A stretch of DNA of 64,000 bases from Candidatus Polarisedimenticolia bacterium (GTDB taxonomy: Bacteria > Acidobacteriota > Polarisedimenticolia > Gp22-AA2 > AA152): positions 326 through 64,325 of the forward strand of contig DASTZC010000281.1 in the NCBI GenBank assembly GCA_035764505.1. The letters are read 5' to 3'. Under the pieces are notes generated by a model. That model saw only the letters and a list, made by a program, of their open reading frames with translations. It had not been told where the DNA came from and did no database searches. Positions within the stretch are counted from its first letter, which is position 1. Each line of letters opens with the position of its first letter. This document shows positions 5,482 to 62,198 of the stretch, one piece after another. A program made the translations under genes and the position numbers.

Positions 5482-5482
5482 C

Positions 5483-23458: not shown

Positions 23459-23492
23459 AAACCGCCGAACCCTGAAAGAGACGAGGAGCGGA

Positions 23493-27104: not shown

Positions 27105-27707
27105 ATGGTAAGGCGTCACCGGGCTTTTCTTTCGGCCGCTGCTCTGACTCTTCTACTGGCCCCGATTCTGGTGTTCGCCGACCCACCGCGAACCAAAGTG
27201 AAAGAGTCGGCGCCGCAGCCCCCCGGCGACTATCGCATCGGCGTGGGCGACATCCTCAACATCCAGGTATGGAAGGAGCCCGATCTGACCCGCTCCGTGC
27301 CGGTCAGACCCGACGGCAAGATCTCCTTCCCGCTTCTGGACGACATCCAGGCCGCGGGCCTTTCCCCGATCGAGCTCAAGGCGATTCTGGTGGAGAAGCT
27401 GCGGCAGTTCCTCAGCGAGCCGCGCGTCACGGTCCTCGTCGACGAAGTCAACAGCTACAAGGTCTACGTCATGGGCGAAGTCGTGACCCCGGGCGTCCTC
27501 ACGCTCAAATCCAAGACCAACCTGCTCCAGGTCATATCGCTCTCGGGCGGCTTCACGCCTTATGCCAAGCGCAACGACATCGTGATCCTGCGGAACAACG
27601 GCAAGCGGGACGAGAGGATCTCGGTGAGCTACGACAAGATTCTGGCCGGCAAGAGTCCCGAGCAGAATCTCTTGCTCGAGCCCGGGGATACGGTGGTCGT
27701 GCCATGA
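27105..27707 (+). CDS. Polysaccharide export protein (Wza/EpsA-like; Poly_export + SLBB)
   Basis: It has a signal peptide, and GDYRIGVGDILNIQVW...PVRPDGKISFPLL is typical of the Poly_export domain. Confidence 0.8.
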   Translation: MVRRHRAFLSAAALTLLLAPILVFADPPRTKVKESAPQPPGDYRIGVGDILNIQVWKEPDLTRSVPVRPDGKISFPLLDDIQAAGLSPIELKAILVEKLRQFLSEPRVTVLVDEVNSYKVYVMGEVVTPGVLTLKSKTNLLQVISLSGGFTPYAKRNDIVILRNNGKRDERISVSYDKILAGKSPEQNLLLEPGDTVVVP

Positions 27708-28969
27708 TCGACCACGCCCATCCCACCCCCCACCCTTTGCCGCGCTCCGGCTGGGCGCTGATCGTGGCGCTGGCCTGCGCCTCGGGGACCGGCGCGAGCC
27801 TGGCGCAAACTCCCCCTCCGCAGAAACCTCCCGGAGGGACGAGTCCCGACCTGCCGATCCGCGAAGGATCGAGCGTGAGAAACGAGGATGCCCCGACCCC
27901 GAACCAGTTTCATCTCGACTTCAACGCGGGCGCCCGCTCGAGCTCGAACGTCTTTTTCGATCCAGACGACGGCTCCCCACAGCAGGATTACATCGGCACC
28001 CTGGTCATGGATCTGAGCGCCACGCGCACCTCGCCGCGCACCGCCTGGACGATGGCCTACGTGCCGGTGCTGAACCACTATCAGACCTACGACCAGCTGG
28101 ACTCGACGAGCCATGCGTTCAATTACACCGGCCGGTATCGCCTGGGCGTCAGGGGAGGGCTCAATCTGCAGGAGCATTTCACCCTGAGCAATGATCCGAT
28201 CATTGTTTCGACGCCCCAGGAAGGGGATTCCCCGATCCTGGCCAACAACCAGCGCGTTACCCGCAACCGTGCCGAGATCAACATGGACCGCGAGCTGAGC
28301 CGCAGGACGCGCTTCAACATCGGCGCGACCCACATCCTCAACCGTTACGAGGATGAGAACTTCCAGGACTCGGACGGCTTGCTCGGACTGATAGGTCTGG
28401 ACTTCGCGGTAAGACGCGAGGACACCCTCGGCATGTCGTTGTCGGGGGGACGGCTGCAGTTCGAGGACGACGTTCCCGACGTCACGTCCGAGTCGGCCGC
28501 GCTCAACTGGAGCCATGTCCAAGATCGCTCCCGCGTGGAGCTCTCGGGCGGTGCGACGGTCGCCAAGCAGACGGAGACCGACAGCTTCTTCTCGGGCAGC
28601 GCCGCACTTTACCGTCGGTTCGGGCGCAATGCGGAGTTTGGCGGCGGCTGGAGGCGCAGCCTTACCGCCGACGTCGGGAACAACGGAACCTCCGTGGGGG
28701 ATCGCGTTTTCATGACCATCTCCGGGGATGCCGGCCGGCATCTCACCCTCATGGCCTCCGCCGATTACGGCAGGCGCGAATCGGTGGCGGGGGCCAGCGA
28801 GGTGAACCTGGATCTATGGGGTGGATCGTTCAGGGCGAGGGTCTCGATGGGGCAGCGCTGGGGGCTGGTGACGGGTGCCAATTATCGCCGCCAGGAAACC
28901 GTGCAGCCGGACATTGGAAGTCAGACCGTAAACAACTATTACCTGGGAATCACCTGCAGGGCCTTCTAG
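27704..28969 (+). CDS. Outer-membrane beta-barrel protein (PEP-CTERM-locus-type OMP-like)
   Basis: The start uses an ATGA overlap with wza. It has a signal peptide and amphipathic beta-strand periodicity, and it ends ...GITCRAF with the aromatic terminus typical of OMPs. The longer ORF from 27269 is rejected. Confidence 0.55.
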   Translation: MIDHAHPTPHPLPRSGWALIVALACASGTGASLAQTPPPQKPPGGTSPDLPIREGSSVRNEDAPTPNQFHLDFNAGARSSSNVFFDPDDGSPQQDYIGTLVMDLSATRTSPRTAWTMAYVPVLNHYQTYDQLDSTSHAFNYTGRYRLGVRGGLNLQEHFTLSNDPIIVSTPQEGDSPILANNQRVTRNRAEINMDRELSRRTRFNIGATHILNRYEDENFQDSDGLLGLIGLDFAVRREDTLGMSLSGGRLQFEDDVPDVTSESAALNWSHVQDRSRVELSGGATVAKQTETDSFFSGSAALYRRFGRNAEFGGGWRRSLTADVGNNGTSVGDRVFMTISGDAGRHLTLMASADYGRRESVAGASEVNLDLWGGSFRARVSMGQRWGLVTGANYRRQETVQPDIGSQTVNNYYLGITCRAF

Positions 28970-29011
28970 TCGGACGGAACGGGGATCGCATCCAGAGAGG
29001 GGCAAGGCCAG

Positions 29012-29245
29012 ATGGCGAGAAGAGAGGAAATCCTGACCAGCGCTGAGGCCCGTCGCTACTTGAAGATCGGACGGACCAAGCTATGGCAGCTCACCAAGGA
29101 GCAGGTGATTCCCTGCTACCGGCTGGGGAGCTCGCGCAACGCAACGATCCGGTACAAGCGCTCCGAGCTGCTGAAGTGGCTCGAGAAGCACCGCTTCGTG
29201 CCGACCGGGCCGATGGCGGGGAATGGGCAAGGCGACGGGCATTGA
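29012..29245 (+). CDS. Excisionase/MerR-like helix-turn-helix DNA-binding protein (77 aa)
   Basis: ARRYLKIGRTKLWQLTKEQVIPCYRLG resembles an Xis-family HTH. It lies immediately upstream of the NusG paralog. Confidence 0.55.
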   Translation: MARREEILTSAEARRYLKIGRTKLWQLTKEQVIPCYRLGSSRNATIRYKRSELLKWLEKHRFVPTGPMAGNGQGDGH

Positions 29246-29262
29246 GAGGGACGGGGAAGGGC

Positions 29263-29781
29263 ATGACATCCGGCTGGTATGCGATTCAGACCAAGCCTCG
29301 CAAGGAAGAGGCGGTTCTGGCGTCCCTGGGACGCAACGGGCTGGAAACCTACTGTCCTCGCACGCGGCGGCGGCGCCGCCTGCGGGGCAGGAGGGTCCAG
29401 GAGTCGGTGCCTCTTTTCCCGGGCTACCTGTTCGTCAGGCTGCAGTTTCCGCGCGACTATGCCGGCATCCGCTGGACGCCGGGGCTGGTGCGCATCGTCA
29501 GCCATGCCGGCGCGCCGGCGCGCATCGGCGAGGAGATCGTGGAAGGCATTCGCACCTTGGAGAGGACGGGAGGATTGCGAATCCCGGCGCTTCGCTTGAC
29601 CCCCGGGTCACGCGTCCGCGTGGTACAGGGTCCCTTCACCGGCTTTGAGGGGCGCGTCACGGCCCACCTCAGCGGCGGCGAGCGGATCCGAATCCTGCTC
29701 GAATTGTTCAGAAGGCATGCGGCGCTGGATTGCGACCCCGACTCCCTGCAGCCCATTGCGGCAGCAGTCGGGGCGGCCTAA
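29263..29781 (+). CDS. NusG-family specialised transcription antiterminator (RfaH/UpxY/LoaP-like paralog)
   Basis: An NGN domain (WYAIQTKPRKEE...PLFPGYLFVRL) and a KOW motif (GSRVRVVQGPFTGFEGRV) are present. The protein is 172 aa and sits inside a polysaccharide locus. Confidence 0.75.
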   Translation: MTSGWYAIQTKPRKEEAVLASLGRNGLETYCPRTRRRRRLRGRRVQESVPLFPGYLFVRLQFPRDYAGIRWTPGLVRIVSHAGAPARIGEEIVEGIRTLERTGGLRIPALRLTPGSRVRVVQGPFTGFEGRVTAHLSGGERIRILLELFRRHAALDCDPDSLQPIAAAVGAA

Positions 29782-29807
29782 GTCTTCTGGGCACAAAGCA
29801 TTGCATT

Positions 29808-30470
29808 ATGGCCCATGAAGGGCCTCGATGGCGGAGCTACATCATCATGGGGTCGTCTGAGAACCCGGCTCAGAACGTCCTCCCTTCCGAGACAGGGGTC
29901 TCGAACGGATGGAGAGGAAGAGGACTGACGCCGGTCTGGAAAAGCCTGTTGTCACCGCAGACGGGTCAGCAGGCGCTCGTGATTGGGAACGTCCCGGCGG
30001 ACCTGCTGCGCATGCTGGGGGAAGCCGGCGTCCAGATGCAGCGCGGCGAGACGATGAGCGGTCCGGTCCAGACGGGACGATTCGATTTGATCCTCGAAGA
30101 GCGCCCCGGCTGGAAAGCCAATGCTCTGCGACCCGACCAGGCCTCGTTCCTTTCCGAGCGAGGCCGCTGGGTCGTGGCCCTGAAAGGGTCACCGGCGATC
30201 GGCGTCCGAGGATGGTGGGTCCGGCGGCAGATGCGCCGCCGCGGCCTGGGAAAAGTGGAGTCGTATTACGCCCATTCAGCCCTGTGGTCTCCCGTCGTCC
30301 TGGTCCCCCTGGATCAGCGGGAGCCGTTCGATTACTTCCTGCGCCTGACCATTTCGGGGGGTTCCTTGCGCCGCTGGCTCATTCTTACCGTGTTCCAGGT
30401 CCTGGTCCACCTTCGCATCCACGCCGGTTTCCTGCCGAACTGCATCGTCGTCGCCCGGAGGACGCCATGA
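29808..30470 (+). CDS. Hypothetical protein (possibly the N-terminal partner of the downstream kinase-fold protein)
   Basis: No motif was recognised. It is ATGA-coupled to the next gene. An internal ATG at 29808 avoids overlap with the NusG-like gene. Confidence 0.35.
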   Translation: MAHEGPRWRSYIIMGSSENPAQNVLPSETGVSNGWRGRGLTPVWKSLLSPQTGQQALVIGNVPADLLRMLGEAGVQMQRGETMSGPVQTGRFDLILEERPGWKANALRPDQASFLSERGRWVVALKGSPAIGVRGWWVRRQMRRRGLGKVESYYAHSALWSPVVLVPLDQREPFDYFLRLTISGGSLRRWLILTVFQVLVHLRIHAGFLPNCIVVARRTP

Positions 30471-31486
30471 TCGGCGCCACCTCCGAATCGTTCCGGAGCT
30501 TCGCGGCCGAGGGCCTCGGTGTCGCGCCGCGCGATCTCACGGTGATGATGATCCACCGCCCCCACGAGGACAAGAACTACGTCGACCAGTCGATTTACTT
30601 CTACTTTCTGCCCCAGCAGCGCTATCCCGCGGTGGTCGGCAAGGTCGGCTTCGACAGGGATGGGGCCCGCTACCTGGAGCGCGAGCACCGCGGCCTGCAG
30701 GCGCTGGTGAGTCGCGGTCCGGCGATTCCGATCGAGTCGGTTCCCCGCCCGATCCTGTATCGCGAGATCTCCGGCAACTATCTCCTCCTGCAGTCGGCGC
30801 TCAAGGGGGACAAGATCGCCACCTGGATCACGCCCCGGGCACGTCTCAACGGCCGGGTCACGAGGCTGCTGCAGTGGGCCCCGCGGTTCAGCGCGGCGCT
30901 GGGCAACGCCACCCGCTGCGACGGCGGCGCCCTGGTCCCGGTCTGGACCGAGGAGTTCAGCGTCAAGCTGGACCGCACCGGCCGCTCACGCACGCTCCTG
31001 GAAACCGCCGCCCGCAACGTATGGGAGGCCTTTGGCAAGACCTTCCCGGCGGTCCTGGCGCACGGCGATTTCTGCGGCGAGAACATCCTCGAGGACGGCC
31101 CGCGCCACGGAGTGATCGACTGGGAGCTGTGCGACGAGCTCTCGCTGCCGGCGTACGACCTCCTGGACTTGTGCCTGTGGCTGTCGTTCCGCACCGAAGG
31201 GAGCGGCCGCTGGGATCCCTTCAACGCCCTCGACCGGGTGCTCAACGGCCGGGACTTCCTGGCGCAGGAGATGCGGAAAGCGCTGGGCGAGTACGCGCGC
31301 GAGATGCGCTTTCCGGCCCGCATCCTGCCCGAGGTCCTGGCGCTGGCCTGGGCCGGATACTGCCTGAAGAAGTTCCGTTACCTGCAGCAGGACGAGACCG
31401 GCAGCTTCGCCCGCGCCCGCGCGGGCGTGCGCAAGATTCTCGACACGCCGCCGGAGTTCCTCTCCGGTGAAGGGGGAACGGCGTGA
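30467..31486 (+). CDS. Aminoglycoside phosphotransferase (APH)/protein-kinase-like fold phosphotransferase
   Basis: The Brenner motif HGDFCGENIL and VIDWE are present. The longer ORF from 29909 is rejected. Confidence 0.6.
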   Translation: MIGATSESFRSFAAEGLGVAPRDLTVMMIHRPHEDKNYVDQSIYFYFLPQQRYPAVVGKVGFDRDGARYLEREHRGLQALVSRGPAIPIESVPRPILYREISGNYLLLQSALKGDKIATWITPRARLNGRVTRLLQWAPRFSAALGNATRCDGGALVPVWTEEFSVKLDRTGRSRTLLETAARNVWEAFGKTFPAVLAHGDFCGENILEDGPRHGVIDWELCDELSLPAYDLLDLCLWLSFRTEGSGRWDPFNALDRVLNGRDFLAQEMRKALGEYAREMRFPARILPEVLALAWAGYCLKKFRYLQQDETGSFARARAGVRKILDTPPEFLSGEGGTA

Positions 31487-32985
31487 GCATCGGCAGGGTG
31501 GTCCGCAACATCTCAGCCGGCTATGTCGGGGCGGCGGTCAACGGCGCGACGCTGCTGATCCTGACGCCCTTGGTGATCCGCAGCCTCGGCACCCTGGAGT
31601 ATGGCCTCTGGGTGACCGCGACGGCGCTGGGGAGCTACTTCGGCTCCCTCAACGCCGGCAGCGGCGCCGCCGGGGTCAGGTCGGTGGCTTCCGGCGCGGC
31701 GCGGGAGGGCTTCGACCAGGCCAGCCGGGAGCTGGGGTCCATCTTCCGCGTCTACTGCGTCCTGGGAATCCTGGCATGCGTCGGATTGATCGGTCTCGGC
31801 TTCATCACGCTCGACCGGTTCGGCGTTCCCCCGGAGCTGAAGGTCTCCATGCGCTGGCTGATCGCGCTCATCGGGATCAACTTTCTGATCTCCTTTCCCT
31901 TCGGCCTGACCCGCAGTGCGCTGGCCGGGATGCAGTATTTCGGGCTGCTCAACACCGTCGAGGTTGCCACAGCGCTTTTCCGCCTGGCGGCCACCGCGGC
32001 GCTGCTGGCGGCAGGGATGGGGGTCGTCTCGCTCGGGGTGGTGCAGCTGATCGCGTCGGTCGCCGGGCACCTCGCCCGCTGGCGCGCGATCCGCCGCCTG
32101 GCGCCGGAGATTCATCTGACCGGTGGCCCGACCTACCGCAAGCTGGTGCCCCAGGCCTTTCTCTTCTCCGCCCTTTCCTTCGGGTACGAGAGCCTGAGGA
32201 CGCTTTTCGAAAACTCCGATCTGCTGATCCTCGGCCTGCTCGCGGGGCCGCAGGCGGTGGCCCTGTTCGCCGTGGCGGCCACGGTCGCCTCCTTCGTTTC
32301 CAAGGGGCTGCAGCCCGTCTCCAACGTCCTGTTCCCGCTCGCCTCGCGCGCCGATTCCCAGGGAACGGCGCAGGCGCGCCTGCTCGAGGTGGCCACGCGG
32401 GTGAATCTGGCGCTGGCCCTGCCGGTGGTGACGCTCCTGATGGTGGACGGTGGCGCGCTCCTGCGGTTGTGGGCCGGTGAGTCTTTTGCCTCCAGCCTCC
32501 CGATCCTGCGCGCCCTCGCCCTGGCGGCGCTGGTCACGGCGGCCTCGCTGGCACCCACGACGCTGCTGTTCGGAGCCGGACGCGTGGGAGTCCTGCTGGG
32601 GGCGGAATCGTGGCGCTACGCCCTCAACCTCGCGCTTGTGGTGGTGGGATACCGCCTCTATGACTTGCCGGGCGCGGCGGTGGGCACGCTCGCGGCGACG
32701 CTCGGAATCGACGCCTGGCTGGTGCTGCGGCGCTGCTGTCCCTGGGGCGGCGTCGATCCGAAAAGCTTCCTGATCCATTCGGTGGGAGCCCCGCTCCTGA
32801 CCGGGCTCCCGGTGGTCCTCCTGATGGCCGCCTGGAAATCGTGGGCTCCTGATCCTTCTCTGCCTCTCCTGCTGGCCAGGGCCGCGGCGTGCCTCGGGGC
32901 TTTCGCCCTGATGTACGGCGTGAGCGGCACCTTCCGCGAGGAGCGGCGTCTCGTCGTGCGCGCATGGGCGGAGGTGTTCCGATGA
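31483..32985 (+). CDS. wzx: Wzx-type polysaccharide flippase (MOP/PST family)
   Basis: It has about 12-14 TM helices and a Polysacc_synt-like profile. Confidence 0.8.
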   Translation: MSIGRVVRNISAGYVGAAVNGATLLILTPLVIRSLGTLEYGLWVTATALGSYFGSLNAGSGAAGVRSVASGAAREGFDQASRELGSIFRVYCVLGILACVGLIGLGFITLDRFGVPPELKVSMRWLIALIGINFLISFPFGLTRSALAGMQYFGLLNTVEVATALFRLAATAALLAAGMGVVSLGVVQLIASVAGHLARWRAIRRLAPEIHLTGGPTYRKLVPQAFLFSALSFGYESLRTLFENSDLLILGLLAGPQAVALFAVAATVASFVSKGLQPVSNVLFPLASRADSQGTAQARLLEVATRVNLALALPVVTLLMVDGGALLRLWAGESFASSLPILRALALAALVTAASLAPTTLLFGAGRVGVLLGAESWRYALNLALVVVGYRLYDLPGAAVGTLAATLGIDAWLVLRRCCPWGGVDPKSFLIHSVGAPLLTGLPVVLLMAAWKSWAPDPSLPLLLARAAACLGAFALMYGVSGTFREERRLVVRAWAEVFR

Positions 32986-34736
32986 ATCCCGGTTTGGTGT
33001 CGCGAGCCCGCAAGTCTCCGCCTCCATTCGGCGAGGTACCGCTTCGCGAGTGGCTCTTCCCGCTCGGCGTGGCCGCTCTCCTGATGGCCATCGTGTGGAT
33101 TCCCTACTCTCTGGGCTACAGCCTGCAGGACGGCACGCATCGCTTCATGGGGCTGGTGGGCACGGACGCGATCGATGACAACAACGTTTACCTGGGCCTG
33201 ATGCGCCAGTCTGCCGAAGGACGGGTGCTGTTCACCAACAACTTCACGCCGGAGCCGAACCCGCCCGCGCTGTTCAACTTCCTCTACCTTTCGCTCGGCC
33301 GGATCTCGCGCTGGACCGGGATGAGCCTTGATCAGACGCATCGCGCGTTCGGCGCTCTGTCGATTCTGCTGCTCACGCTGACCATCTACGGCTTCATCGC
33401 CACCGCCATCCGTCGCCCTTTCTACCGCCGCTTCGCCCTGGTGCTCGCCTGCTTCGGAGGCGGCTTCCTGTGGCTCTCGCGCATCATCCTGCGGATGACC
33501 GGTGTCGACCTCAAGCCGATCACCGCCTGGCTCGTGGAAGTAAATCTCTTCCACGCGATGCTCGTCTATCCGCATTTTGTCTTCGCCGCCGCGCTGATGA
33601 CCGGCTCGCTCGTCATGTACCTCAAATCGGAGCGGGTGCGGCGCTACATGCCGGCGGCGGCGGCCGGCTGCGTGGCGACGATCCTCGCCGCCAGCCATGC
33701 CTTCGAGGCCGTGGCTTTCATTCCGATCGCCGGCGCCTATCTGGTGCTCGACGCGCTGGGGCTCGGGCGAATGCCGGGGGCCAGCCGCTGGAAGTGCTGC
33801 GCGCTGGTCATCGGGATGCCGGTGGGGATGCTGCTGGTGAATCGCTGGATGCTGATCCTGGAGCCGGCCTGGGGAGACGTGGTGACACGGCTGTCGTTCC
33901 AGACGCCGGAGCCCTTCCGCCTGATCCTCGGCCTGGGGGCCTCTTTCGCCATCTCGGTGCTGACTTTCGAAGGCTTCCTGCGCGTCGACCGCCCATCCGG
34001 AGAGCGCATGGCGAAGGCCTGGGTGCTCATGGTTCTGGTGCTGGCCTATGTACCGTACATCAACTGGCGCTGGCACCTGCTCAACGGCATCCAGATCCCG
34101 CTGTCCATTCTCGCGACCCAGGGGCTGCGGCGCACGGTGTTCCTGCGCATCCAGCGGCGGCGGCGGGCGCTCGGCAAGCGGCGCATTGTGCCGCGCGGCA
34201 TCTGGGCTCCGGCACCGCAGATGGCGGTCATGGCGCTGGTCGGCATCATCTGCTGCCTGAGCGTGGCGAACCTCTTCCTCCATTACAAATACCAGGTGCA
34301 GGACATGAGCTCGCCTACCTACCTCACCCGCGGCGAGCTGTCGGCGATGGACTGGATGAGCCGCAACGTGTCGCTCGATTCGGTGGTCCTCGGCTCCTAC
34401 AAGACCGGCAACTACGTGCCGCGACTGTCGGGACAGCGGGTCTTCCTGGGCGAGGACATGCTCACGCAGGCTTTCGAGATTCGCGCACGGGACGTGGGGG
34501 AGTTCTACTCGACGCATTGGAACGACACGCAGCGCGAGGCGCTCCTCAGGCACTACCAGGTGGGATACGTGGTGTACGGGCCGCCGGAGCGCGAGCTGGG
34601 CTCGTACGATCCGTCCGCCTCCAGCTTCCTGCACCGGATCTACGAGGCCGACGGGGTCGAGATCTTCGCGGTGAAGCAGGAGGGAGAGGGAGGCATGCGC
34701 ACCGCAACCCTTCCGGAAAAGGAGCCTTTGCCTTGA
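32982..34736 (+). CDS. Large polytopic membrane protein, putative GT-C fold glycosyltransferase or polymerase
   Basis: It has more than 12 TM segments. GTDAIDDNNVY in the first extracytoplasmic loop is a DD-type motif, and there is a C-terminal ~200-aa soluble domain. It uses an ATGA overlap. Confidence 0.45.
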   Translation: MNPGLVSRARKSPPPFGEVPLREWLFPLGVAALLMAIVWIPYSLGYSLQDGTHRFMGLVGTDAIDDNNVYLGLMRQSAEGRVLFTNNFTPEPNPPALFNFLYLSLGRISRWTGMSLDQTHRAFGALSILLLTLTIYGFIATAIRRPFYRRFALVLACFGGGFLWLSRIILRMTGVDLKPITAWLVEVNLFHAMLVYPHFVFAAALMTGSLVMYLKSERVRRYMPAAAAGCVATILAASHAFEAVAFIPIAGAYLVLDALGLGRMPGASRWKCCALVIGMPVGMLLVNRWMLILEPAWGDVVTRLSFQTPEPFRLILGLGASFAISVLTFEGFLRVDRPSGERMAKAWVLMVLVLAYVPYINWRWHLLNGIQIPLSILATQGLRRTVFLRIQRRRRALGKRRIVPRGIWAPAPQMAVMALVGIICCLSVANLFLHYKYQVQDMSSPTYLTRGELSAMDWMSRNVSLDSVVLGSYKTGNYVPRLSGQRVFLGEDMLTQAFEIRARDVGEFYSTHWNDTQREALLRHYQVGYVVYGPPERELGSYDPSASSFLHRIYEADGVEIFAVKQEGEGGMRTATLPEKEPLP

Positions 34737-39170: not shown

Positions 39171-39181
39171 GGGACTGAGAA

Positions 39182-40282: not shown

Positions 40283-40292
40283 GGTCGTCGTG

Positions 40293-47302: not shown

Positions 47303-47336
47303 TGCGTCGTCTTCGAGCGCGAGGGAGTCGAACTTC

Positions 47337-51750: not shown

Positions 51751-51754
51751 GGGG

Positions 51755-55008: not shown

Positions 55009-56135
55009 CGATGCGGCGCGTCCTCGTCACGGGAGGAGCCGGATTCATCGGCTCGCACCTGGTCGCCGCGCTGAGAGCGCGCGGGCACCGCGTGCGCGTC
55101 CTGGATGTCCTCGATCCGCAGGTGCACGGCCGCGACGGCCGGCACCGAGGCACGCCCGAGGACGTCGAGATGCTGCGCGGCGACATCCTGGACGAGGAGC
55201 TGCTCGGCCGTGCTCTGGAGGGCATCGAGGTGCTGTTTCATCAGGCCGCCAGCGTGGGCGTCGGCCAATCGATGTACGAGGCGGCCGCTTATACGCGGGT
55301 GAACAGCCTGGGGACGGCGCTGCTCATGCAGCGCCTGGCGGCGCCGGGCTCGAAGGTGGAGAAGGTCGTCGTCGCCTCGTCGATGTCGCTCTACGGCGAG
55401 GGATACTACTCCTGTCCCTCCTGCGGCCCGGTCCATCCGCAGCCGCGCAGCCGGCGCAGCCTGTCGCCGGGCGAATGGGAGCCGGCCTGCCCGCGCTGCA
55501 AGGCGCCGCTGGAGCCTCTACCCACGGCGGAGACGGTGCCACCTGCGCCCACATCGATCTACGCCATCACCAAGCGCTGCCAGGAGGAGACGGTGCTGGT
55601 GATGGGGCGCGCCTACGGCATTCCGGCCGTCGCCTTGCGCTACTTCAATGTCTATGGCCCCGGCCAGGCGCTGTCGAACCCTTACACCGGCGTGGCGGCG
55701 ATTTTCGCCAGCCGCCTGCTCAATGGGGCGGCCCCGATCCTCTTCGAGGACGGCATGCAGAGCCGCGATTTCATCCATGTCTCCGATATCGTGCGCGCCA
55801 ACCTGCTGGCGATGGAGAAGCCGCAGGCGGACGGCGAGGTGTTCAACGTGGGGACCGGCCGGCGCACGACCTTGCTGGAGATGGCCTCCTCGCTGGCGGC
55901 CAAGCTGCGCCCTCAGGGAGACGCGGCGCCCCAGGTGGCGGGGACCTTCCGGGAAGGCGACATCCGACATTGCTTCGCGGACGTGACGAAGATCGGCAAG
56001 GCCCTCGGATTCGAGGCGGCAATGCCCTTGGAGCGCGGCTACGAGGACCTGGCCGAGTGGGCCAGGACCCAGAAGCCGCAGGATTTCACCCGCGAGGCGG
56101 TCGCGGAGCTCGAGGCGCGCGGGCTGGTCTCCTGA
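55005..56135 (+). CDS. NAD-dependent epimerase/dehydratase (extended SDR) with inserted Cys4 zinc-ribbon
   Basis: GGAGFIGSHL, YxxxK and YFNVYGP are present. A ~40-aa insertion YYSCPSCGPV...PACPRCK interrupts the Rossmann core. Confidence 0.8.
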   Translation: MTMRRVLVTGGAGFIGSHLVAALRARGHRVRVLDVLDPQVHGRDGRHRGTPEDVEMLRGDILDEELLGRALEGIEVLFHQAASVGVGQSMYEAAAYTRVNSLGTALLMQRLAAPGSKVEKVVVASSMSLYGEGYYSCPSCGPVHPQPRSRRSLSPGEWEPACPRCKAPLEPLPTAETVPPAPTSIYAITKRCQEETVLVMGRAYGIPAVALRYFNVYGPGQALSNPYTGVAAIFASRLLNGAAPILFEDGMQSRDFIHVSDIVRANLLAMEKPQADGEVFNVGTGRRTTLLEMASSLAAKLRPQGDAAPQVAGTFREGDIRHCFADVTKIGKALGFEAAMPLERGYEDLAEWARTQKPQDFTREAVAELEARGLVS

Positions 56136-56182
56136 CCCGCGCCGCCCGGGAATCTCATTCACCGAAAGGAGTGCGCAGTTCC

Positions 56183-57673
56183 ATGTTCAAGGCTCTCGTG
56201 ACCAACCCACCCTGGCCAGGGGACGGCTACGGCGCCCGGTCCTCCGTGCGCTGGCCGCACAAACGCAAGGACAAGAAGCTCGAATTCCCCATTTTCCTCG
56301 CCTACACCGTCGCGCTCCTGAAAGAGAAGGGGGTGGAGACCGTCTTCCTGGACGGCGTCTGCGACGAGCTGGACATCGAGCGCTACGCCGCCGAGGTGGC
56401 GCGCATCGCGCCCGACTTCATCGCCATGGAGTGCTCGACTCCCTCCATCGATCACGACCTCCAGTCGATCCGACGAATCAAGGAGCTGCGGCCGCAGACC
56501 TTCGTGGCGCTGATGGGCTCGCACGCGACCTACTATCACCAGGAGCTGCTGCGGGAGCACCCGGAGATCGGCGCCATCATCCGCGGCGAGTTCGAGGTCA
56601 CGGTGCGCGAGGTGGCCCTGGCGCTCCGCGCCGGCTCGAATCTGGAGAAAGTCGCCGGAGTGACCTGGCGCGGCGAAGGCGGCATCCGCGTCAATCCGGA
56701 TCGCCCCTTCGAGGGTGATCTCGACCGCTGGCCCTATCCCGATCGCGAATCGATCCTGATGGAGAAGTACCAGACGGCGCAGTACCAGGGGAAAAAGGGG
56801 ACCTTCATGCTCTCCAGCCGCGGCTGCCCCTATCGCTGCACCTTCTGCCTGTGGCCGGGGACGATGGTGGGGCGCGACTTCCGTGCCCGCGACCCGGAGT
56901 CGGTGGTCGACGAGATGGAGTACCTCGTGCGCCAGCACGGCGTCGACGACATCTACTTCGACGACGACACCATGACCATCGATCGGGAGCGGCTCCTGCG
57001 GATCTGCCGGCTGATCCAGGAGCGCGACCTGAAAGTCCACTGGATCTCCATGGGGCGCGTCGACACGGTGGACGATGAGCTGCTCAGTGAGATGCGCAAG
57101 GCCGGGTGCGACAACCTGTACCTCGGGGTCGAGTCGGGATCGCAGGAGATCCTCAATCGCCTGAAGAAAGGGATCACGCTCGATCAGGTCGTGAAGGCCT
57201 TCCAGGCGGCGCGGCGCGCCGGCATCAAGACCCAGGCCTTCTTCATGCTGGGCGGACCGGGAGAGACGAAGGAGACCTTGAAGGAGACCATCGACTTCGC
57301 CGTGAAGCTGGATCCCGACAACGCTCAGTTCGCCGCCGCGGTGCCCTATCCCGGCACCGAGATGTACGAAGAGTCGCTGCGCAAGGGCTATCTGCGGGCC
57401 ACCAGCTGGGAGGACTACGCCGCCAAGGACATCGTCCTGGAGACCGAGACCCTGTCGCGCCTGGACCTCGAGAAGGCCCGGCTCGAAGCCTACCGGCGCT
57501 TCTACCTGCGCCCTCGCTTCATCATGCGCACGGCGTCACGGCTGACCAGCACGCGCGAGTTCCGGCGCGTCTGGCGGGGCACCGTCTCCATCGTGAGTCG
57601 GCTGCTCTACTTCTCCAAGAACGTCCGCCGCAAGACGCGCTCCACGACGCGCGGCGCCCTGGAATCGGCGTGA
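56183..57673 (+). CDS. B12-binding domain radical SAM protein (class B), paralog of 47337..48818
   Basis: The same architecture, with SSRGCPYRCTFC, is present. The two share VRWPH/DRWPH and other blocks. Confidence 0.8.
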   Translation: MFKALVTNPPWPGDGYGARSSVRWPHKRKDKKLEFPIFLAYTVALLKEKGVETVFLDGVCDELDIERYAAEVARIAPDFIAMECSTPSIDHDLQSIRRIKELRPQTFVALMGSHATYYHQELLREHPEIGAIIRGEFEVTVREVALALRAGSNLEKVAGVTWRGEGGIRVNPDRPFEGDLDRWPYPDRESILMEKYQTAQYQGKKGTFMLSSRGCPYRCTFCLWPGTMVGRDFRARDPESVVDEMEYLVRQHGVDDIYFDDDTMTIDRERLLRICRLIQERDLKVHWISMGRVDTVDDELLSEMRKAGCDNLYLGVESGSQEILNRLKKGITLDQVVKAFQAARRAGIKTQAFFMLGGPGETKETLKETIDFAVKLDPDNAQFAAAVPYPGTEMYEESLRKGYLRATSWEDYAAKDIVLETETLSRLDLEKARLEAYRRFYLRPRFIMRTASRLTSTREFRRVWRGTVSIVSRLLYFSKNVRRKTRSTTRGALESA

Positions 57674-57674
57674 G

Positions 57675-58826
57675 ATGACCGTTTGCTACTGGGGGACCTA
57701 CGACCGCGATTATCCGCGCAACCGCATTCTCATCCAGGGGCTGCGCGCCAACCAGGTCGTGGTCCGCGAGATGCACGCGCCGCTGTGGGGATCCACCGCC
57801 GAAAAGGTGCGGCGCGCGCGCGGCCGTTGGCTGGGCCCCGGCCTGGTATTGCGGGCGGCCTGGGCCTACCTGCGCCTCGGCGCCCGGTTCCTTGCATCAC
57901 CCCGCCCTGATTTCCTGTTCGTCGGCTATTCGGGGCATTTCGACGTCTTTCCCGCCTGGGTCCTCAGCCGCGTCCGCCGGGTCCCCCTGGTCTTCGACGC
58001 GTTCCTGTCGCTGTACGACTCTCTGGTCCTCGACCGCGGCGCGCTGGCGCCGCGCGGTCTCAAGGCGCGGGCCCTCGCTTGGGTGGACCGCTGGTCCTGC
58101 CGCCTGGCGGACCGGGTCCTCCTCGACACCAGCGCGCATCGTGAGTTCTTCTGCCGGCAGTTCGGCGTGCCTCCGGAAAAATTCTGGATTCTGCCGATCG
58201 GGGCCGACGACACCGTGTTCACCCCCGCCGCGGAACCTCCCGGCAACGGACATCAACCGCCGACGGTGCTGCACTTCGGGCGCTACATTCCGCTGCACGG
58301 TATGGAAACGGTGGTGCGGGCCGCGGCGCTGCTGGAGGAATCCGGCGAGCCCTGCCGGTTTCTGCTGGTGGGAGACGGAGAGGAGCGGCCGCGCATCGAG
58401 GCTCTGGCGCACGAGCTCGGGCTGCGCAGCGTGGAGTTCGTCGGGAGCCAGTCCCCGGAGATGCTGGCCGAGACGGTACGGCGCTCGGATCTCTGCCTCG
58501 GAATCTTCGGCACCACCGGGAAAGCCGCCCGCGTCGTGCCCAACAAGGTTTACGAGGCGATGGCTTCCGGCAAGCCGATCCTGACCGCCGATTCGCCGGC
58601 GGCGCGCGAGATGCTCACCGACGGGGTCGACTGCCTGCTGTGCGAGAGCGGCAATCCGCAGAGCCTTGCAGACGCCATCCGGCGGGCCCGCTCCGACCTC
58701 GAGCTGGCGAATCGACTGGGGAGCAATGCGCGGCGCCGCTTCGAGCTGTGCGCCGCTCCCGCCGTGATCGGACAGACCCTGGCGCGAAACCTGCAGGTCC
58801 TGGGAGGGGCGCATGCCGCTTCTTGA
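57675..58826 (+). CDS. GT4 (GT-B) glycosyltransferase
   Basis: EAMASGKPIL in the C-terminal Glycos_transf_1 domain. Confidence 0.7.
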   Translation: MTVCYWGTYDRDYPRNRILIQGLRANQVVVREMHAPLWGSTAEKVRRARGRWLGPGLVLRAAWAYLRLGARFLASPRPDFLFVGYSGHFDVFPAWVLSRVRRVPLVFDAFLSLYDSLVLDRGALAPRGLKARALAWVDRWSCRLADRVLLDTSAHREFFCRQFGVPPEKFWILPIGADDTVFTPAAEPPGNGHQPPTVLHFGRYIPLHGMETVVRAAALLEESGEPCRFLLVGDGEERPRIEALAHELGLRSVEFVGSQSPEMLAETVRRSDLCLGIFGTTGKAARVVPNKVYEAMASGKPILTADSPAAREMLTDGVDCLLCESGNPQSLADAIRRARSDLELANRLGSNARRRFELCAAPAVIGQTLARNLQVLGGAHAAS

Positions 58827-60255
58827 TCCGGGGGCGGCGCGCGAGAAGCGCTGGGTCGTGGGGCTCCTGATACTGGCCCTGATGCTGCGCCTCGGCTTCG
58901 TGTTGATGCAGCCGTCGGGATTCTATTTCTTCGATTCGGTGGAGTTCGATCGGGCCGCCCGCACGCTGCTGGATCTGGGCCGCTTCCACCACTCCTACGA
59001 GCACCTGCCCGGATATCCGATCTTCATGGCGGGAGTCTACGCGCTGTTCGGCCGCGAGGTGCTGCCGCTGCGGCTGGTGCAGGCGCTGCTTTCCACCGGC
59101 CTTTGCGCGCTGATCTGGCTGCTCGGCCGGCGGCTGTTCGGCCGCCGAGCGGGGCTGTTGGCGCTGGCCCTGTGCGTTTTCTTCCCGGTACAGATCGTCC
59201 TGCCCGGGATCGAGTACCCGCTGGTCGTGGGGAGCCTGGCGATATGGGGGGGGCTGACGCTGCAGGCGCTGCGCTCCGGGGAGCCGCGGCGCGACTTCAT
59301 CTGCCTGGCCGGCGCGGGCGTCCTGATCGGAGCAGCCTGCCTGACGTTCGAGGCCGGATGGGCCGCGGCCGTGTTCATGGGTTTCTGGCTGCTGATGGAA
59401 GGCGGTACCCTGAAGCGACGGGCCGGAGCCTCAGCGGTGTTCACGGCGGCGGTGCTGGTCACCGCGATTCCCTTCCTGGTGGGCATGGCCGAGTCGGACG
59501 ACTTCCGGCCGGTGCTCAAGCGGGCGGGGGTCCATCTGCCGGCCGCCCCCGACAGCGACGCGCCCCTTTCGCAGGGAAACGGCACGAACCTGGTGGAGGC
59601 CAAGCTCACGGCGATGGCCGAACGACCCGGGTTCACTTTGAAGCACATCGCTTCCGAGTTCGTGCGCTTCTGGAACCCCTATCCCGACCGGCTTTGGGCG
59701 GCGAGCGCCGGATTTCGCGAGAAAGCGCACCGCGAGGACGCGCGCATGCGCCTCCAGAATCCTCTCGTCACCAATCGGAAGAAGCTTCTCTATGCCGCGG
59801 GCTTCTCCGTCCTGCTCGCGGGAGCGGCGCTCGGCGCTTTCATGGCCCGCCGCAAGGTGGTCGGCTGGGGCTTCCTGGCAGGGTGGCCGGTTGCCCTGGG
59901 TTTGGCTTACGCTCCTTTCTTCACCCAGATGCGTTATCGCATTCCCGCCGATCCGGCTTTTTTCCTGCTGGCCGCCTATGCGGCGGATCAACTCTTGGAA
60001 GGAGAGCTCGTGAACGCCCTACGATCCCTGCCCGCCGCCCTCTGGGAAGGCTGGAAGCGGGTGGCCCTGAAAATCGCCCTGGTCCAGACGTTCCTCCTCC
60101 TGGCCCTGCTGTTCGGCCTGGTCCTGGGCCCCCTCTCCCTGTTGATGAAGCTGTTCCGCAAGGATCCCATGGAAGGGGTCGTGCAGGGGTCGTCCTTCTG
60201 GGTGGTCCGGGAGAAGACGAGCGAGGGCCTGCAAGAATGTCTCAGACAGTTCTGA
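58813..60255 (+). CDS. GT-C fold membrane glycosyltransferase (PMT_2/ArnT-like)
   Basis: FFDSVEFDRAA in the first loop is followed by HLPGYPIFMAGVYALFG, typical of PMT_2, with about 11 TM segments. Confidence 0.6.
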   Translation: MPLLDPGAAREKRWVVGLLILALMLRLGFVLMQPSGFYFFDSVEFDRAARTLLDLGRFHHSYEHLPGYPIFMAGVYALFGREVLPLRLVQALLSTGLCALIWLLGRRLFGRRAGLLALALCVFFPVQIVLPGIEYPLVVGSLAIWGGLTLQALRSGEPRRDFICLAGAGVLIGAACLTFEAGWAAAVFMGFWLLMEGGTLKRRAGASAVFTAAVLVTAIPFLVGMAESDDFRPVLKRAGVHLPAAPDSDAPLSQGNGTNLVEAKLTAMAERPGFTLKHIASEFVRFWNPYPDRLWAASAGFREKAHREDARMRLQNPLVTNRKKLLYAAGFSVLLAGAALGAFMARRKVVGWGFLAGWPVALGLAYAPFFTQMRYRIPADPAFFLLAAYAADQLLEGELVNALRSLPAALWEGWKRVALKIALVQTFLLLALLFGLVLGPLSLLMKLFRKDPMEGVVQGSSFWVVREKTSEGLQECLRQF

Positions 60256-60268
60256 TTGGATGGAGTGC

Positions 60269-62005
60269 ATGAACATACTCGGAATCTCCTGTTTCTACCA
60301 TGATTCGGCCGCCTGCCTGATCCAGGACGGGCGGGTGGTCGCAGCCGCTTCCGAGGAGCGGTTCACCCGTAAGAAGCACGACGAAGACTTTCCCAAGAAC
60401 GCGGTGGAGTACTGCCTGAAGGCGGGCGGTATCACGACGGCCGATCTGGATTACGTCGGCTTCTACGACAAGCCCTTCCTGAAGTTCGAGAGGCTGCTCT
60501 CCACCTATCTGTCGACCTTCCCGCGCGGCTTCCGCTCCTTCAGCAAGGCGATGCCGGTCTGGCTCAAGGAAAAGCTCTGGATCCCGCAGATGATCCGGAA
60601 GGAGCTGAACTACAAGGGAAAAATCCTGTTCACCGAGCACCACATGTCGCACGCCGCCAGCGCCTTCCTGGTCTCGCCTTTCAAGGAGGCGGCCATCCTC
60701 ACGGTGGACGGGGTCGGCGAGTGGGCCACCGCCAGCTACGGCGTGGGGCGCGACCGCAAGATCGAGCTGTTCAAGGAGATTCGCTTCCCGCATTCCCTCG
60801 GGCTGCTGTACAGCGCCTTCACCTACTACCTCGGCTTCAAGGTCAACAGCGCCGAGTACAAAGTGATGGGGCTGGCACCTTACGGCGAGCCGAAATATGT
60901 CGACCTGATCCGCAAGCTGATCGCCGTCAAGGACGACGGCAGCTTCGAGATGGACATGCGCTACTTCTCCTATCACTACGGCCTGCGCATGGTGAACGGC
61001 AGCTTCGCGAAGCTGTTCGGGGCGCCGCCGCGCGAGGCCGAATCGAAGCTCGAGCAGCACCACAAGGACCTGGCCGCCTCGGTCCAGAAAGTGACCGAGG
61101 AGATCATGCTCAAGATGGCCGATTACCTGCACCGCGAGACCGGCATGGAGAACCTCTGTCTGGCGGGCGGCGTGGCCCTGAACTGCGTGGCCAACGGCCG
61201 GGTCCTGCGCGAAGGCCCCTTCAAGGACCTGTTCATCCAGCCCGCCGCCGGGGATGCCGGTGGTGCGCTCGGGGTGGCGGCCTACATCTATCACAGCGTC
61301 CTGGACCAGCCGCGCACAGAGAGCATGAGCCACGCCTATCTGGGCCCGGAATTCTCGGACGACGAGGTCCAGGCGATCCTCGAAAAGTACAGGGCGCCGG
61401 CCGAGAAGCTGGATCGCGACACCTTGGTGAAGCGGGTGGCGGCGCTGATCGAAGGGCAGACGGTCATCGGCTGGTTCCAGGGCAAGATGGAATTCGGACC
61501 GCGGGCCCTGGGCGGACGGAGCATCCTCGCCGACGCCCGCAATCCCGAGAACAAGGACGTGGTCAATCTCAAGATCAAGTTCCGCGAGAGCTTCCGCCCC
61601 TTCGCGCCGACGGTGCTGGAAGAGCGCATCTCCGAATATTTCGAAATCGATCGTCCCAGCCCCTACATGCTTCTGGTGGCGCCTGTGCGGGAGGAGAAGC
61701 GCATCATCCCGTCGGTGACCCACGTGGACCATTCGGCGCGCATCCAGAGCATCAACCGGGAGCAGAACGCCCTGTACTACGATCTGATCAAGGAGTTCGA
61801 TCGCCGGACCGGCGTCCCGGTGATCATCAACACCTCCTTCAACGTCCGGGGGGAGCCCATTGTCTGCACGCCGGATGATGCGTACCGCTGTTTCATGCGC
61901 ACGCACATGGACTATCTGGTGATGGGGCCTTACGTTCTCGACAAGAAGGCCCAGCCTGCCTTCCAGGAGGAAGGGGACTGGCGGCAGGAATTCCAACTCG
62001 ACTAG
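60269..62005 (+). CDS. Carbamoyltransferase (NodU/CmcH family)
   Basis: MNILGISCFYHDSAACLI..G.VVAAASEERFTRKKHD plus the YrdC/Kae1-like C-terminal half. The ATG at 60260 is an alternative start. Confidence 0.85.
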   Translation: MNILGISCFYHDSAACLIQDGRVVAAASEERFTRKKHDEDFPKNAVEYCLKAGGITTADLDYVGFYDKPFLKFERLLSTYLSTFPRGFRSFSKAMPVWLKEKLWIPQMIRKELNYKGKILFTEHHMSHAASAFLVSPFKEAAILTVDGVGEWATASYGVGRDRKIELFKEIRFPHSLGLLYSAFTYYLGFKVNSAEYKVMGLAPYGEPKYVDLIRKLIAVKDDGSFEMDMRYFSYHYGLRMVNGSFAKLFGAPPREAESKLEQHHKDLAASVQKVTEEIMLKMADYLHRETGMENLCLAGGVALNCVANGRVLREGPFKDLFIQPAAGDAGGALGVAAYIYHSVLDQPRTESMSHAYLGPEFSDDEVQAILEKYRAPAEKLDRDTLVKRVAALIEGQTVIGWFQGKMEFGPRALGGRSILADARNPENKDVVNLKIKFRESFRPFAPTVLEERISEYFEIDRPSPYMLLVAPVREEKRIIPSVTHVDHSARIQSINREQNALYYDLIKEFDRRTGVPVIINTSFNVRGEPIVCTPDDAYRCFMRTHMDYLVMGPYVLDKKAQPAFQEEGDWRQEFQLD

Positions 62006-62018
62006 GGGGAAGGGCAGG

Positions 62019-62198
62019 ATGAGCATCAAGGAATCGGTGAAGGACAAGGTCCAATTCGGCAGGGAATTCTGGGAATTCCTGCGGGTCAGGAAGAAGTGGT
62101 GGCTGGCGCCGATCATCATTCTGAGCGCGCTGTTGGGAATTCTGATCGTGCTGACCCACGGCTCCGCCCTGGCTCCGTTTATCTATACCATTTTCTGA
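62019..62198 (+). CDS. DUF5989-like small membrane protein (59 aa), absent from the ORF track
   Basis: Manual translation gives MSIKESVKDKVQFGREFWEFLRVRKKWWLAPIIILSALLGILIVLTHGSALAPFIYTIF. It lies immediately downstream of the carbamoyltransferase, as is commonly seen for this family. Confidence 0.55.
   Translation: MSIKESVKDKVQFGREFWEFLRVRKKWWLAPIIILSALLGILIVLTHGSALAPFIYTIF

Follow-up and report, generated by a model that had tools for sequence, protein, structure and literature searches.

What does a run of tightly packed, co-oriented genes some 35 kb long encode in a bacterium of the class Polarisedimenticolia, and does its packing mark it as a single machine? The question is raised by positions 27105 to 62198 of a 64,000-nt stretch of contig DASTZC010000281.1 (Candidatus Polarisedimenticolia bacterium), referred to here as the window. 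A preliminary description had presented this interval as a single array of about 27 genes, stitched together by start/stop overlaps, for the stoichiometric co-expression of one glycan-assembly machine. Our analysis indicates that the region very probably forms the conserved core of an operon on the chromosome, one that spans at least 37 kb, holds at least 32 genes, and encodes the synthesis and export of a heavily modified, Wzx/Wzy-dependent heteropolysaccharide. This reading is carried by gene content, junction anatomy, ribosome-binding motifs, synteny, and the fold of one membrane protein, g7. [quoted passage not shown]

Because the guanine plus cytosine (GC) content of the window is about 68%, raw lists of open reading frames (ORFs) are full of spurious frames. 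The gene model draws on a plot of third-position GC by frame, on stop-to-stop ORFs, and on candidate starts, and was corrected against orthologous loci, in which the proteins align from residue 1. The frame plot indicates uninterrupted plus-strand coding from about 27100 to the end of the window. Frame plot and gene model agree that every gene between 27105 and 62198 lies on the plus strand, as had been described, and the interval holds 30 genes, not about 27, separated by 29 junctions. The DUF5989-like ORF noted at its end is a true DUF5989 gene, at 62019-62198; an overlapping ORF at 62096-62398 was discarded, having the wrong GC3 frame, no family match, and a junk translation. A start of the NusG paralog at 29083, giving 232 aa and a 113-nt gap, was likewise rejected in favor of 29263 on the basis of homolog lengths and orthologous loci, which also revealed an HTH_17 gene of its own at 29012-29245.

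The nature of the pathway is indicated by the genes for initiation, flipping, polymerization, and export:

27105-27707, plus strand: g1, Class-3 OPX (Wza-like) protein, 200 aa; PF02563 89 bits, signal peptide.
27704-28969, plus strand: g2, candidate outer-membrane beta-barrel protein, 421 aa; signal peptide, C-terminal Phe.
31483-32985, plus strand: g6, Wzx-type MOP flippase; PF01943 47.8 bits (cut-off 28.2), PF13440 44.9 (cut-off 23).
50014-51750, plus strand: g21, bifunctional initiating enzyme, 578 aa; PF00483 77 bits, PF02397 228 bits (cut-off 27).
51773-53995, plus strand: g22, Wzc-type co-polymerase and tyrosine autokinase; TIGR01007 184 bits (cut-off 108).
63567-64000, plus strand: g31, N-terminal part of a probable Wzy-type polymerase, cut by the window end after 144 aa; at least 3 transmembrane (TM) segments.

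The description of the interval as a Wzx/Wzy/Wzc-type assembly and export locus is borne out by g6 (Wzx, with about 11 TM segments by hydropathy), g22 (Wzc), g21 (the initiating phosphoglycosyl transferase, PGT), and g1 (OPX). It does not extend to Wzy, which had been counted as part of the interval's machine: the probable Wzy is g31, which lies outside the interval and is truncated by the window end. The g31 ortholog in the closest relative, locus L064, is 498 aa long, is 65% identical over the shared part, and matches Wzy_C with 48 bits (cut-off 31.7); inside the window Wzy_C has no match. The co-polymerase g22 carries Wzz and GNVR domains, the Walker A motif AVAGEGKS, and a seven-Tyr C-terminal cluster, YRYPEYGYYGYEGY.

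At the export end, g1 consists of a Poly_export domain (residues 38-112) and one SLBB domain (residues 119-199) that reaches the protein end, has no outer-membrane helix domain, and scores 157 with TIGR03027 (cut-off 180). Class-3 OPX proteins have the architecture Poly_export-SLBB(n) without Wza_C or GfcC (PMC9603273), and by its sequence g1 is of this class. The name wza given to the gene at 27105 is thus apt for an OPX exporter and misleading for a 200-aa Class-3 protein that lacks the outer-membrane helix domain. Pairing of Class-3 OPX proteins with a beta-barrel has been described (PMC9603273, PMC12819527). The next gene, g2, which overlaps g1 by 4 nt, probably encodes such a beta-barrel partner; it has weak EpsL and TIGR03016 matches, and one of six orthologs matches PF10082 BBP2_2 (E = 9e-8). 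A profile of g2 orthologs gave no match in the PDB, and an AlphaFold2 (AF2) model from the single sequence, made with no alignment, was unusable (pLDDT 29).

At the initiating end, residues 1-357 of g21 form a sugar-1-phosphate nucleotidylyltransferase with an LbH domain, for which the PDB matches are nucleotidyltransferases, and residues 378-577 form a PglC-like Bac_transf monotopic PGT core, for which they are WbaP/PglC. Throughout the cluster family, the fusion keeps a length of exactly 578 aa. When species-representative genomes were scanned with a pattern-seeded search, 57 loci were returned; both domains were matched in one Acidobacteriota metagenome-assembled genome (MAG; L002, 36% identity), and no synteny was found on the contigs scanned. 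A PglC-like core fused to a second functional domain marks the bifunctional monotopic PGTs, or Bi-PGTs (PMC10942596, citing O'Toole et al. 2021), and g21 fits this class, its partner being the N-terminal nucleotidylyltransferase with LbH domain.

Gene order was compared with that of relatives, a check that had been proposed at the outset, and synteny was found for both halves of the locus. From wza to g17, the left half of the locus, gene order is kept in loci L059 (84% amino acid identity), L149, L060/L061 (62%), and L062 (54%); from g17 to the DUF5989 gene, the right half, it is kept in L064 (89% nucleotide identity), L065, L066, and 23 metagenome contigs from the Joint Genome Institute (JGI) or NCBI. 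The upstream context, DUF362-EamA-RecG, is conserved too. The conserved core stops at the DUF5989 gene, g29, which is the end of the interval first flagged, and the tail downstream varies: L064 continues with glycosyltransferase genes of families GT2 and GT4, Wzy, another GT4, and further genes, and L065/L066 with a GT2-GT4 fusion, a GT4, a UDP-glucose dehydrogenase, and Wzy. In the present genome, the core is followed by the trace of a deletion:

62236-62362, plus strand: deletion scar, 127 nt, in place of 1,052 nt of L064 (16060-17111) that carry a 361-aa GT2 gene (blastn).

Outside the deletion, L064 and the window share 89% nucleotide identity. The deletion leaves a 55-codon remnant ORF within a 196-nt non-coding gap after 62198, the sole gap above 50 nt in the array. 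Loss of the GT2 gene, at the level of the strain, accounts both for this gap and for the presence of six rather than the seven GT2 genes that had been reported for the interval.

Junction anatomy is the second line of evidence. The 29 junctions of the interval comprise 16 exact 4-nt [A/G/T]TGA overlaps, two longer overlaps (8 nt at 35664 and 14 nt at 58813), and 11 gaps of 1-47 nt, the maximum agreeing with the earlier figure of less than 50 nt. The exact 4-nt overlaps, all on the plus strand, are located at:

27704, 30467, 31483, 32982, 34733, 36455, 37453, 38367.
41207, 42688, 44358, 46352, 48815, 50014, 53992, 55005.

Fifteen of the 17 overlaps listed in the preliminary description are among these. 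That at 58813 is the 14-nt overlap; that at 63567 lies beyond the interval and is 13 nt long with an ATG start, an in-frame GTGA alternative being present at 63576; and the overlap at 31483 had been missed. A further ATGA overlap is found beyond the interval at 62395. Shine-Dalgarno (SD)-like motifs (GGAG, GAGG, or AGGA) lie 5-18 nt upstream of 13 of 17 overlap starts (binomial P ~3e-8), against a background of 15% for all positions and 13% for 202 other NTGA sites in the region.

Operon-internal gene pairs are richer in overlaps than the genome average, and in compact operons the 4-nt overlap is the commonest junction type. The overlap pattern is no discovery in itself; what the locus offers is a clean example of a conserved junction type with a drifting start codon. 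The flanks (27 kb) contain, by a rough count, about 3 such junctions among about 14 same-strand pairs. Genome-wide, overlapping co-directional pairs average about 15%, with an extreme of about 30% (PMC6728339), and 18 overlaps in 29 junctions would have P ~1e-8 at the first rate and 3e-4 at the second.

Junctions were compared in 24 syntenic metagenome contigs and in six loci retrieved by protein identity, and the overlap-or-gap state is kept position by position across orthologous clusters from independent assemblies. The g20-g21 junction is ATGA in 12 of 12 loci; g22-g23 is a 4-nt overlap in 16 of 16, with a start codon that switches among ATG, GTG, and TTG; and g23-g24 is one in 19 of 20. 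Conversely, a 4-nt overlap occurs in none of 13 loci at g21-g22, in none of 17 at g26-g27, and never in the compared loci at g27-g28 or g28-g29. These data bear on the concern that the overlaps are artefacts of annotation or assembly, produced when a high-GC MAG contains frameshifts or has its starts called wrongly. A genome of 68% GC does commonly yield long spurious ORFs and alternative starts, but in about 30 contigs from independent assembly efforts (JGI, NCBI submitters, Logan) the junction types are the same, the overlap persists while the start codon varies, SD motifs precede most of the overlap starts, and orthologs align from their first residue. Conservation of junction type across independent assemblies therefore excludes an assembly artefact, and the artefactual explanation as a whole is extremely improbable.

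It is important to note that genuine overlaps do not make the products equimolar. Coupling yields 1:1 output only at 100% efficiency (PMC6728339, main experimental study). The overlaps would favor re-initiation, and the packing would give correlated expression rather than fixed stoichiometry. The claim of stoichiometric co-expression of a single machine is not warranted because coupling would have to be fully efficient and most of the products are enzymes, not subunits of a complex; overlaps of this kind are, moreover, common in compact operons.

The region upstream of g1 and the first genes of the array contain candidate elements for transcription as one unit:

26575-26606, plus strand: short hairpin and T-run just after recG, a sequence block kept in L060 and L149.
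26613-26641, plus strand: candidate promoter for the operon, TTGACA-17 nt-TACCGT, some 465 nt upstream of g1.
26885-26992, plus strand: leader elements conserved in the window, L059, L149, and L060.
29012-29245, plus strand: g2b, HTH_17 DNA-binding protein, 77 aa; PF12728 43 bits.
29263-29781, plus strand: g3, NusG paralog, RfaH/UpxY-like, 172 aa; Pfam NusG NGN 67.6 bits.

The hairpin and T-run is the probable recG terminator. Immediately after it, the candidate promoter has an invariant -35 hexamer and a -10 element, TA(C/T)CGT, in the window, L149, and L060; it was not called by a consensus scan because its -10 element is weak, and its role as the operon promoter is a prediction. The leader holds two conserved elements, a 50-nt block GTCAA...GTTGTCAATCCTGAAATTGTAATC with two GTCAA repeats and a small hairpin CCATTTC...GAATGG, which recur in relatives whose proteins are 62-84% identical. 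The two may serve in regulation or as a recruitment site for the NusG paralog. The leader RNA does not fold with unusual stability compared with shuffled sequences (z = -1.16), and an Rfam scan of the whole window returned no family matches.

The g3 protein scores below every curated cut-off: 96.1 against 144.5 for RfaH, 84.2 against 100 for UpxY, 51.5 against 125 for LoaP, and 50.7 against 135.7 for NusG. Its KOW domain, at 21.2, is just below the cut-off of 22.3. Its sequence matches in the PDB are NusG and RfaH, and 114 homologs of about 170 aa were found. With an NGN and a KOW domain, a length within the range of about 160-180 aa, and a gene set in a polysaccharide operon away from the housekeeping nusG context, g3 qualifies as a specialized NusG paralog. 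By its scores it belongs to none of the curated subfamilies, its nearest being RfaH and UpxY, and it is predicted to be the operon's antiterminator. NusG paralogs have been described as dedicated antiterminators of long operons, some of them encoded within their own target (PMC7593976), from which we infer one long primary transcript kept processive by g3. The arrangement resembles the Bacteroides UpxY/UpxZ capsule operons and the RfaH-dependent lipopolysaccharide (LPS) and capsule operons of E. coli, in which a long polysaccharide operon encodes or depends on a NusG paralog, and with which the locus shares a NusG paralog gene near the 5' end after a long leader. Here, g3 is the fourth gene, not the first, and is preceded by the HTH_17 gene rather than followed by UpxZ. 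Compared with RfaH, UpxY, and LoaP, g3 falls below the curated cut-offs, no ops-like site was identified, and one relative is without the gene.

The g2b gene has orthologs in L059, L060, and L149. The HTH_17 and NusG genes are separable among relatives, L060/L061 retaining HTH_17 without NusG and the L062, L150 lineage retaining NusG without HTH_17.

Within the array, a consensus scan found no promoter-like site on the coding strand, a scan that Acidobacterial promoters may not fit. Promoter-like and terminator-like sites show no excess over shuffled controls, and the terminator-like matches, every one of them within a gene, number no more than shuffling predicts. These results bear on whether the array consists instead of several adjacent operons or sub-operons with promoters of their own, the overlaps reflecting genome compaction within each; one such division would run wza-OMP, HTH/NusG to g18, g19 to g24, g25 to g29, and the tail. 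In all relatives, the junctions before g19, g22, g25, and HTH_17 have gaps of 22-47 nt, which could hold promoters, wza is physically apart in the L062/L150 lineage, and the tail past 62198 is variable and lies behind the 196-nt gap in this genome. The silence of the consensus scan is weak evidence on the other side, given that Acidobacterial promoters may differ from the consensus, but the exclusively intragenic terminator-like matches, the single strand throughout, the lack of any gap above 47 nt, and the presence of an operon-encoded NusG paralog, a type of factor tied to very long single units, all argue for one unit. We regard a division into sub-operons as possible but somewhat unlikely.

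Several points nevertheless weigh against the preferred reading, that of a single antiterminated polysaccharide operon. The leader has no match to the E. coli ops consensus, and matches elsewhere occur at chance level. L060/L061 keep the cluster without a NusG paralog. In the L062/L150 lineage, wza is separated from the remaining genes by a lyase gene; in L150, two oppositely oriented genes also intervene, and the remainder starts after an intergenic region of about 900 nt. L062, in addition, lacks g15 and has an extra methyltransferase gene. The separation of wza, the loss of the NusG gene, and the gain and loss of other genes therefore make the unit modular rather than indivisible, and the earlier picture of a single array does not carry over to the relatives. 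Among the assignments, the beta-barrel nature of g2 draws on weak evidence, Wzy is known through the L064 ortholog alone because the window ends inside g31, and no Wzb-type phosphatase was seen within the window. Sugar donors, the acceptor, and the product type (secreted exopolysaccharide [EPS], capsule, or O-antigen-like chain) cannot be read from the sequence.

The lyase gene directly after wza is heparinase II/III-like (L062, 2387-4426; L150, 686-2767), and its product may serve in trimming or turnover of the polymer.

The glycosyltransferases that would build and decorate the polymer are distributed along the array:

32982-34736, plus strand: g7, GT-C membrane glycosyltransferase, 584 aa; no Pfam match, AF2 pLDDT 87, pTM 0.88.
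34733-35671, plus strand: g8, GT2; PF00535 79 bits.
36455-37456, plus strand: g10, GT2; PF00535 90 bits.
37453-38370, plus strand: g11, GT2; PF00535 59 bits.
40293-41210, plus strand: g14, GT2; PF00535 78 bits.
41207-42691, plus strand: g15, polytopic membrane protein with about 8 TM segments; weak NCBIfam matches only.
42688-44361, plus strand: g16, GT-C type; PMT_2 30.6 (cut-off 26.1).
44358-46355, plus strand: g17, GT-C type; sub-threshold GT22 and LA_3751-family matches only.
46352-47302, plus strand: g18, GT2; PF00535 104 bits.
48815-50017, plus strand: g20, GT4; Pfam match.
53992-55008, plus strand: g23, GT2 resembling polyprenyl-phosphate sugar synthases; 2 C-terminal TM segments.
57675-58826, plus strand: g26, GT4; family match.
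58813-60255, plus strand: g27, GT-C (PMT_2); PF13231 36.9 (cut-off 26.1).
62395-63579, plus strand: g30, GT4, in the variable tail; PF00534 128 bits.

The six GT2 genes of the interval are thus g8, g10, g11, g14, g18, and g23. Three GT4 genes had been reported and three are present in the window, of which g20 and g26 lie inside the interval and g30 outside. The earlier count of five GT-C membrane proteins is plausible: g16 and g27 exceed the PMT_2 threshold, g7 is assigned by fold, and g17 and g15 have weak or ortholog-level matches only. The ortholog of g15 in L060 has a weak MptA_B match, and g15 is probably a GT-C protein.

Of these, g7, which is 100% identical to a protein annotated as Candidatus Polarisedimenticolia, was examined by structure prediction. 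In a Foldseek search of its AF2 model against the PDB, the top 38 matches are all GT-C proteins, including STT3, DPY19, AglB, PglB, AftA, and ArnT (best E 3e-9, TM-score ~0.5), and the predicted structure is that of a GT-C fold. The first extracytoplasmic loop contains a DD pair, of which D66 is invariant and D65 is conserved in at least 90% of 32 homologs. The idea that g7 is the missing Wzy was discarded on account of the GT-C fold and the assignment of Wzy to g31.

The remaining genes of the core encode mainly candidate modifying enzymes, including short-chain dehydrogenase/reductase (SDR) and radical S-adenosylmethionine (SAM) proteins:

29808-30470, plus strand: g4, conserved protein without family match, 220 aa; syntenic in all relatives examined.
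30467-31486, plus strand: g5, APH-family kinase-like protein; PF01636 54 bits.
35664-36458, plus strand: g9, polysaccharide deacetylase; PF01522 91 bits.
38367-39170, plus strand: g12, SAM-dependent methyltransferase; PF08241 50 bits.
39182-40282, plus strand: g13, radical SAM protein with SPASM domain; PF04055 83 bits, PF13186 60 bits.
47337-48818, plus strand: g19, B12-binding radical SAM protein; Pfam match.
55005-56135, plus strand: g24, SDR epimerase/dehydratase; family match.
56183-57673, plus strand: g25, B12-binding radical SAM protein; family match.
60269-62005, plus strand: g28, NodU/CmcH-type carbamoyltransferase; PF02543 330 bits, PF16861 246 bits; start taken from ortholog alignments.
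62019-62198, plus strand: g29, DUF5989 small membrane protein, 59 aa; PF19451 86.5 bits, syntenic in 12 loci.

The three radical SAM enzymes that had been reported are g13, g19, and g25, and the proposal of a heavily decorated polymer is a fair one. The genes for g4 and g5 form a conserved overlapping pair that immediately precedes Wzx in every relative; the two proteins might, for instance, act in the phosphorylation of sugars or lipids.

The combination of a GT2 with C-terminal TM helices (g23), PMT_2/GT-C proteins (g27, g16), and an SDR (g24) is shared with the Arn (ArnC/ArnT) and Gtr (GtrB/GtrC-type) systems. In contrast to those systems, about five GT-C proteins and B12-binding radical SAM enzymes are encoded here inside a Wzx/Wzy locus, there is no ArnA/B/D equivalent, and the polymer is the presumed acceptor. 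The likeness raises the question of whether two glycan systems have merged, one a Wzx/Wzy/Wzc polymer pathway and the other an Arn/Gtr-like module (g23-g27 and the other GT-C proteins) that uses polyprenyl-phosphate sugars to decorate something other than the polymer, for example lipid A/LPS, another lipid, or proteins. Proteins and lipids are common acceptors of GT-C enzymes, the nearest folds of g7 include the oligosaccharyltransferases STT3, PglB, and AglB as well as ArnT, and the GT2-SDR-B12 radical SAM-GT4 cassette described below stands alone in unrelated phyla, which marks it as a mobile module. A TM-score of ~0.5, however, speaks to the fold and not to the acceptor, and the cassette and all GT-C genes hold fixed positions in relatives at 54-85% protein identity. 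These genes are also joined to their neighbors by overlaps, which argues for one pathway, and a merger of two systems appears distinctly unlikely.

The nearest model for both B12-binding radical SAM proteins is HpnJ, with scores of 290 for g25 and 245 for g19, under the cut-off of 577.6; their context is one of glycan genes rather than hpn genes, and judged by score and context the two are not HpnJ equivalogs. Each directly precedes a GT4 gene, with a 4-nt overlap at g19-g20 and a 1-nt gap at g25-g26. Tandem duplication of a radical SAM-GT4 module was considered and found unconvincing; g19 and g25 are 37% identical, and g20 and g26 just 26% over half their length.

More generally, g25 is unusually conserved. 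An Omnitrophota MAG, a genome of Bathyarchaeota, and 59 of the related loci examined contain homologs that are 49-56% identical, usually amid glycosyltransferase genes (GT4) and often near an SDR 53-58% identical to g24. In the Omnitrophota MAG, the order GT2-SDR-radical SAM-GT4 is identical to that of g23-g26. In 30 of the distant loci, the sequence reaches 4 kb or more upstream of the g25 homolog; 13 of these have an SDR resembling g24 (at least 45% identity) within 6 kb, 23 have a GT4, and 12 have a second B12-binding radical SAM enzyme. We tentatively propose, as a rather unlikely but attractive interpretation, that g24 and g25 represent a widespread, uncharacterized pathway for a radical-SAM-modified sugar that is delivered to the polymer on a periplasmic lipid carrier. 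By analogy with HpnJ, the nearest characterized relative, the product might carry a C-methyl group on an unactivated carbon of the sugar or be a carbocyclic sugar formed by ring contraction. A literature search found nothing on sugar modification by g25-type radical SAM enzymes.

Together, the gene content and arrangement suggest a simple model, in which transcript structure, antitermination, coupling, donors, and product are all predicted from sequence. Transcription would start from the conserved sigma-70-like promoter just after recG and proceed through a leader of about 455 nt, with g3, as its family suggests, keeping RNA polymerase processive over the long unit and the HTH_17 protein possibly helping. 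During translation, gaps of at most 47 nt and SD motifs inside upstream genes would favor re-initiation and leave little RNA free for Rho. Initiation would be carried out by g21, making a nucleoside diphosphate (NDP)-sugar and transferring the sugar-1-phosphate to undecaprenyl phosphate, after which cytoplasmic GT2 and GT4 enzymes would extend the repeat unit. The unit would be modified by the deacetylase, the methyltransferase, the kinase-like protein, the carbamoyltransferase, the SDR, and the three radical SAM enzymes, flipped by Wzx (g6), and polymerized by Wzy (g31) under the control of Wzc (g22). In the periplasm, about five GT-C enzymes may add side residues from polyprenyl-phosphate sugars made by g23, as in the Arn and Gtr systems. 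Export would proceed through Wzc, the short OPX g1, and the putative beta-barrel g2.

Comparison with known systems places the locus among familiar types while setting it apart in detail. The E. coli group 1 capsule and colanic acid loci follow the same logic, with a PGT, Wzx, Wzy, a Wzc autokinase whose C-terminus bears a Tyr cluster, and an OPX exporter. In contrast to them, the present locus has no Wza_C outer-membrane helix domain, shows no Wzb phosphatase in the window, uses a nucleotidyltransferase-PGT fusion rather than a large WbaP-type PGT, and has about twice as many genes; its characterization as far more elaborate than typical is a matter of degree only. The EPS, BPS, and MASC systems of Myxococcus xanthus (WzaX/S/B, WzpX/S/B) share Wzx, Wzy, a Wzc-type co-polymerase, and a Bac_transf initiating enzyme, and also a gene for an OPX protein of about 200 aa (Poly_export and SLBB only) that adjoins a gene for an outer-membrane protein. 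Compared with WzaB, g1 lacks the lipobox Cys and the C-terminal Phe-Phe motif. The Myxococcus clusters are dispersed and are not known to carry GT-C or radical SAM genes, whereas this locus is one contiguous, co-oriented array that carries both.

The best NCBIfam matches of many of the proteins are to models of XrtA/PEP-CTERM EPS loci (TIGR03027, TIGR03025, TIGR03007, TIGR03018, and stp2). Every match to a PEP-CTERM-system model is under its cut-off, the closest being TIGR03025 (287.4 against 295.6), and the set of window ORFs searched with Pfam or NCBIfam contained no gene for an exosortase. Membership in a PEP-CTERM/exosortase system was discarded on both grounds.

Soils and sediments harbor abundant Acidobacteriota, whose extracellular polysaccharides are believed to influence soil aggregation, desiccation tolerance, and carbon storage. 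To our knowledge, almost nothing is known of the genetics involved in uncultured classes such as Polarisedimenticolia, and our literature search returned nothing specific on this cluster, on Polarisedimenticolia EPS, or on B12-binding radical SAM enzymes in EPS loci. The locus provides a well-delimited conserved core of about 30 genes that is recognizable in many metagenomes. Its notable parts are the operon-encoded NusG paralog with its leader elements, the nucleotidyltransferase-PGT fusion, the Class-3 OPX with a putative porin partner, the unusually large GT-C set, and the cross-phylum cassette of SDR and B12-binding radical SAM genes. Of these parts, the NusG/leader system, the fusion, and the radical SAM cassette hold somewhat more interest than the overlaps, and the cross-phylum cassette is the best lead of the locus.

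Two neighborhoods upstream of the array complete the picture of the window. Just upstream of recG, at 20466-24383, lies a small conserved group comprising a GT2 (minus strand), a UbiA prenyltransferase, a DUF362 protein, and an EamA transporter. The EamA gene meets recG in a 4-nt GTGA overlap, and such overlaps thus exist outside the cluster too. Further upstream, at 2242-8979 on the minus strand, a Ser/Thr protein kinase is encoded with two DUF4388 proteins, one of which has DnaJ and TPR domains, a group unrelated to the cluster.

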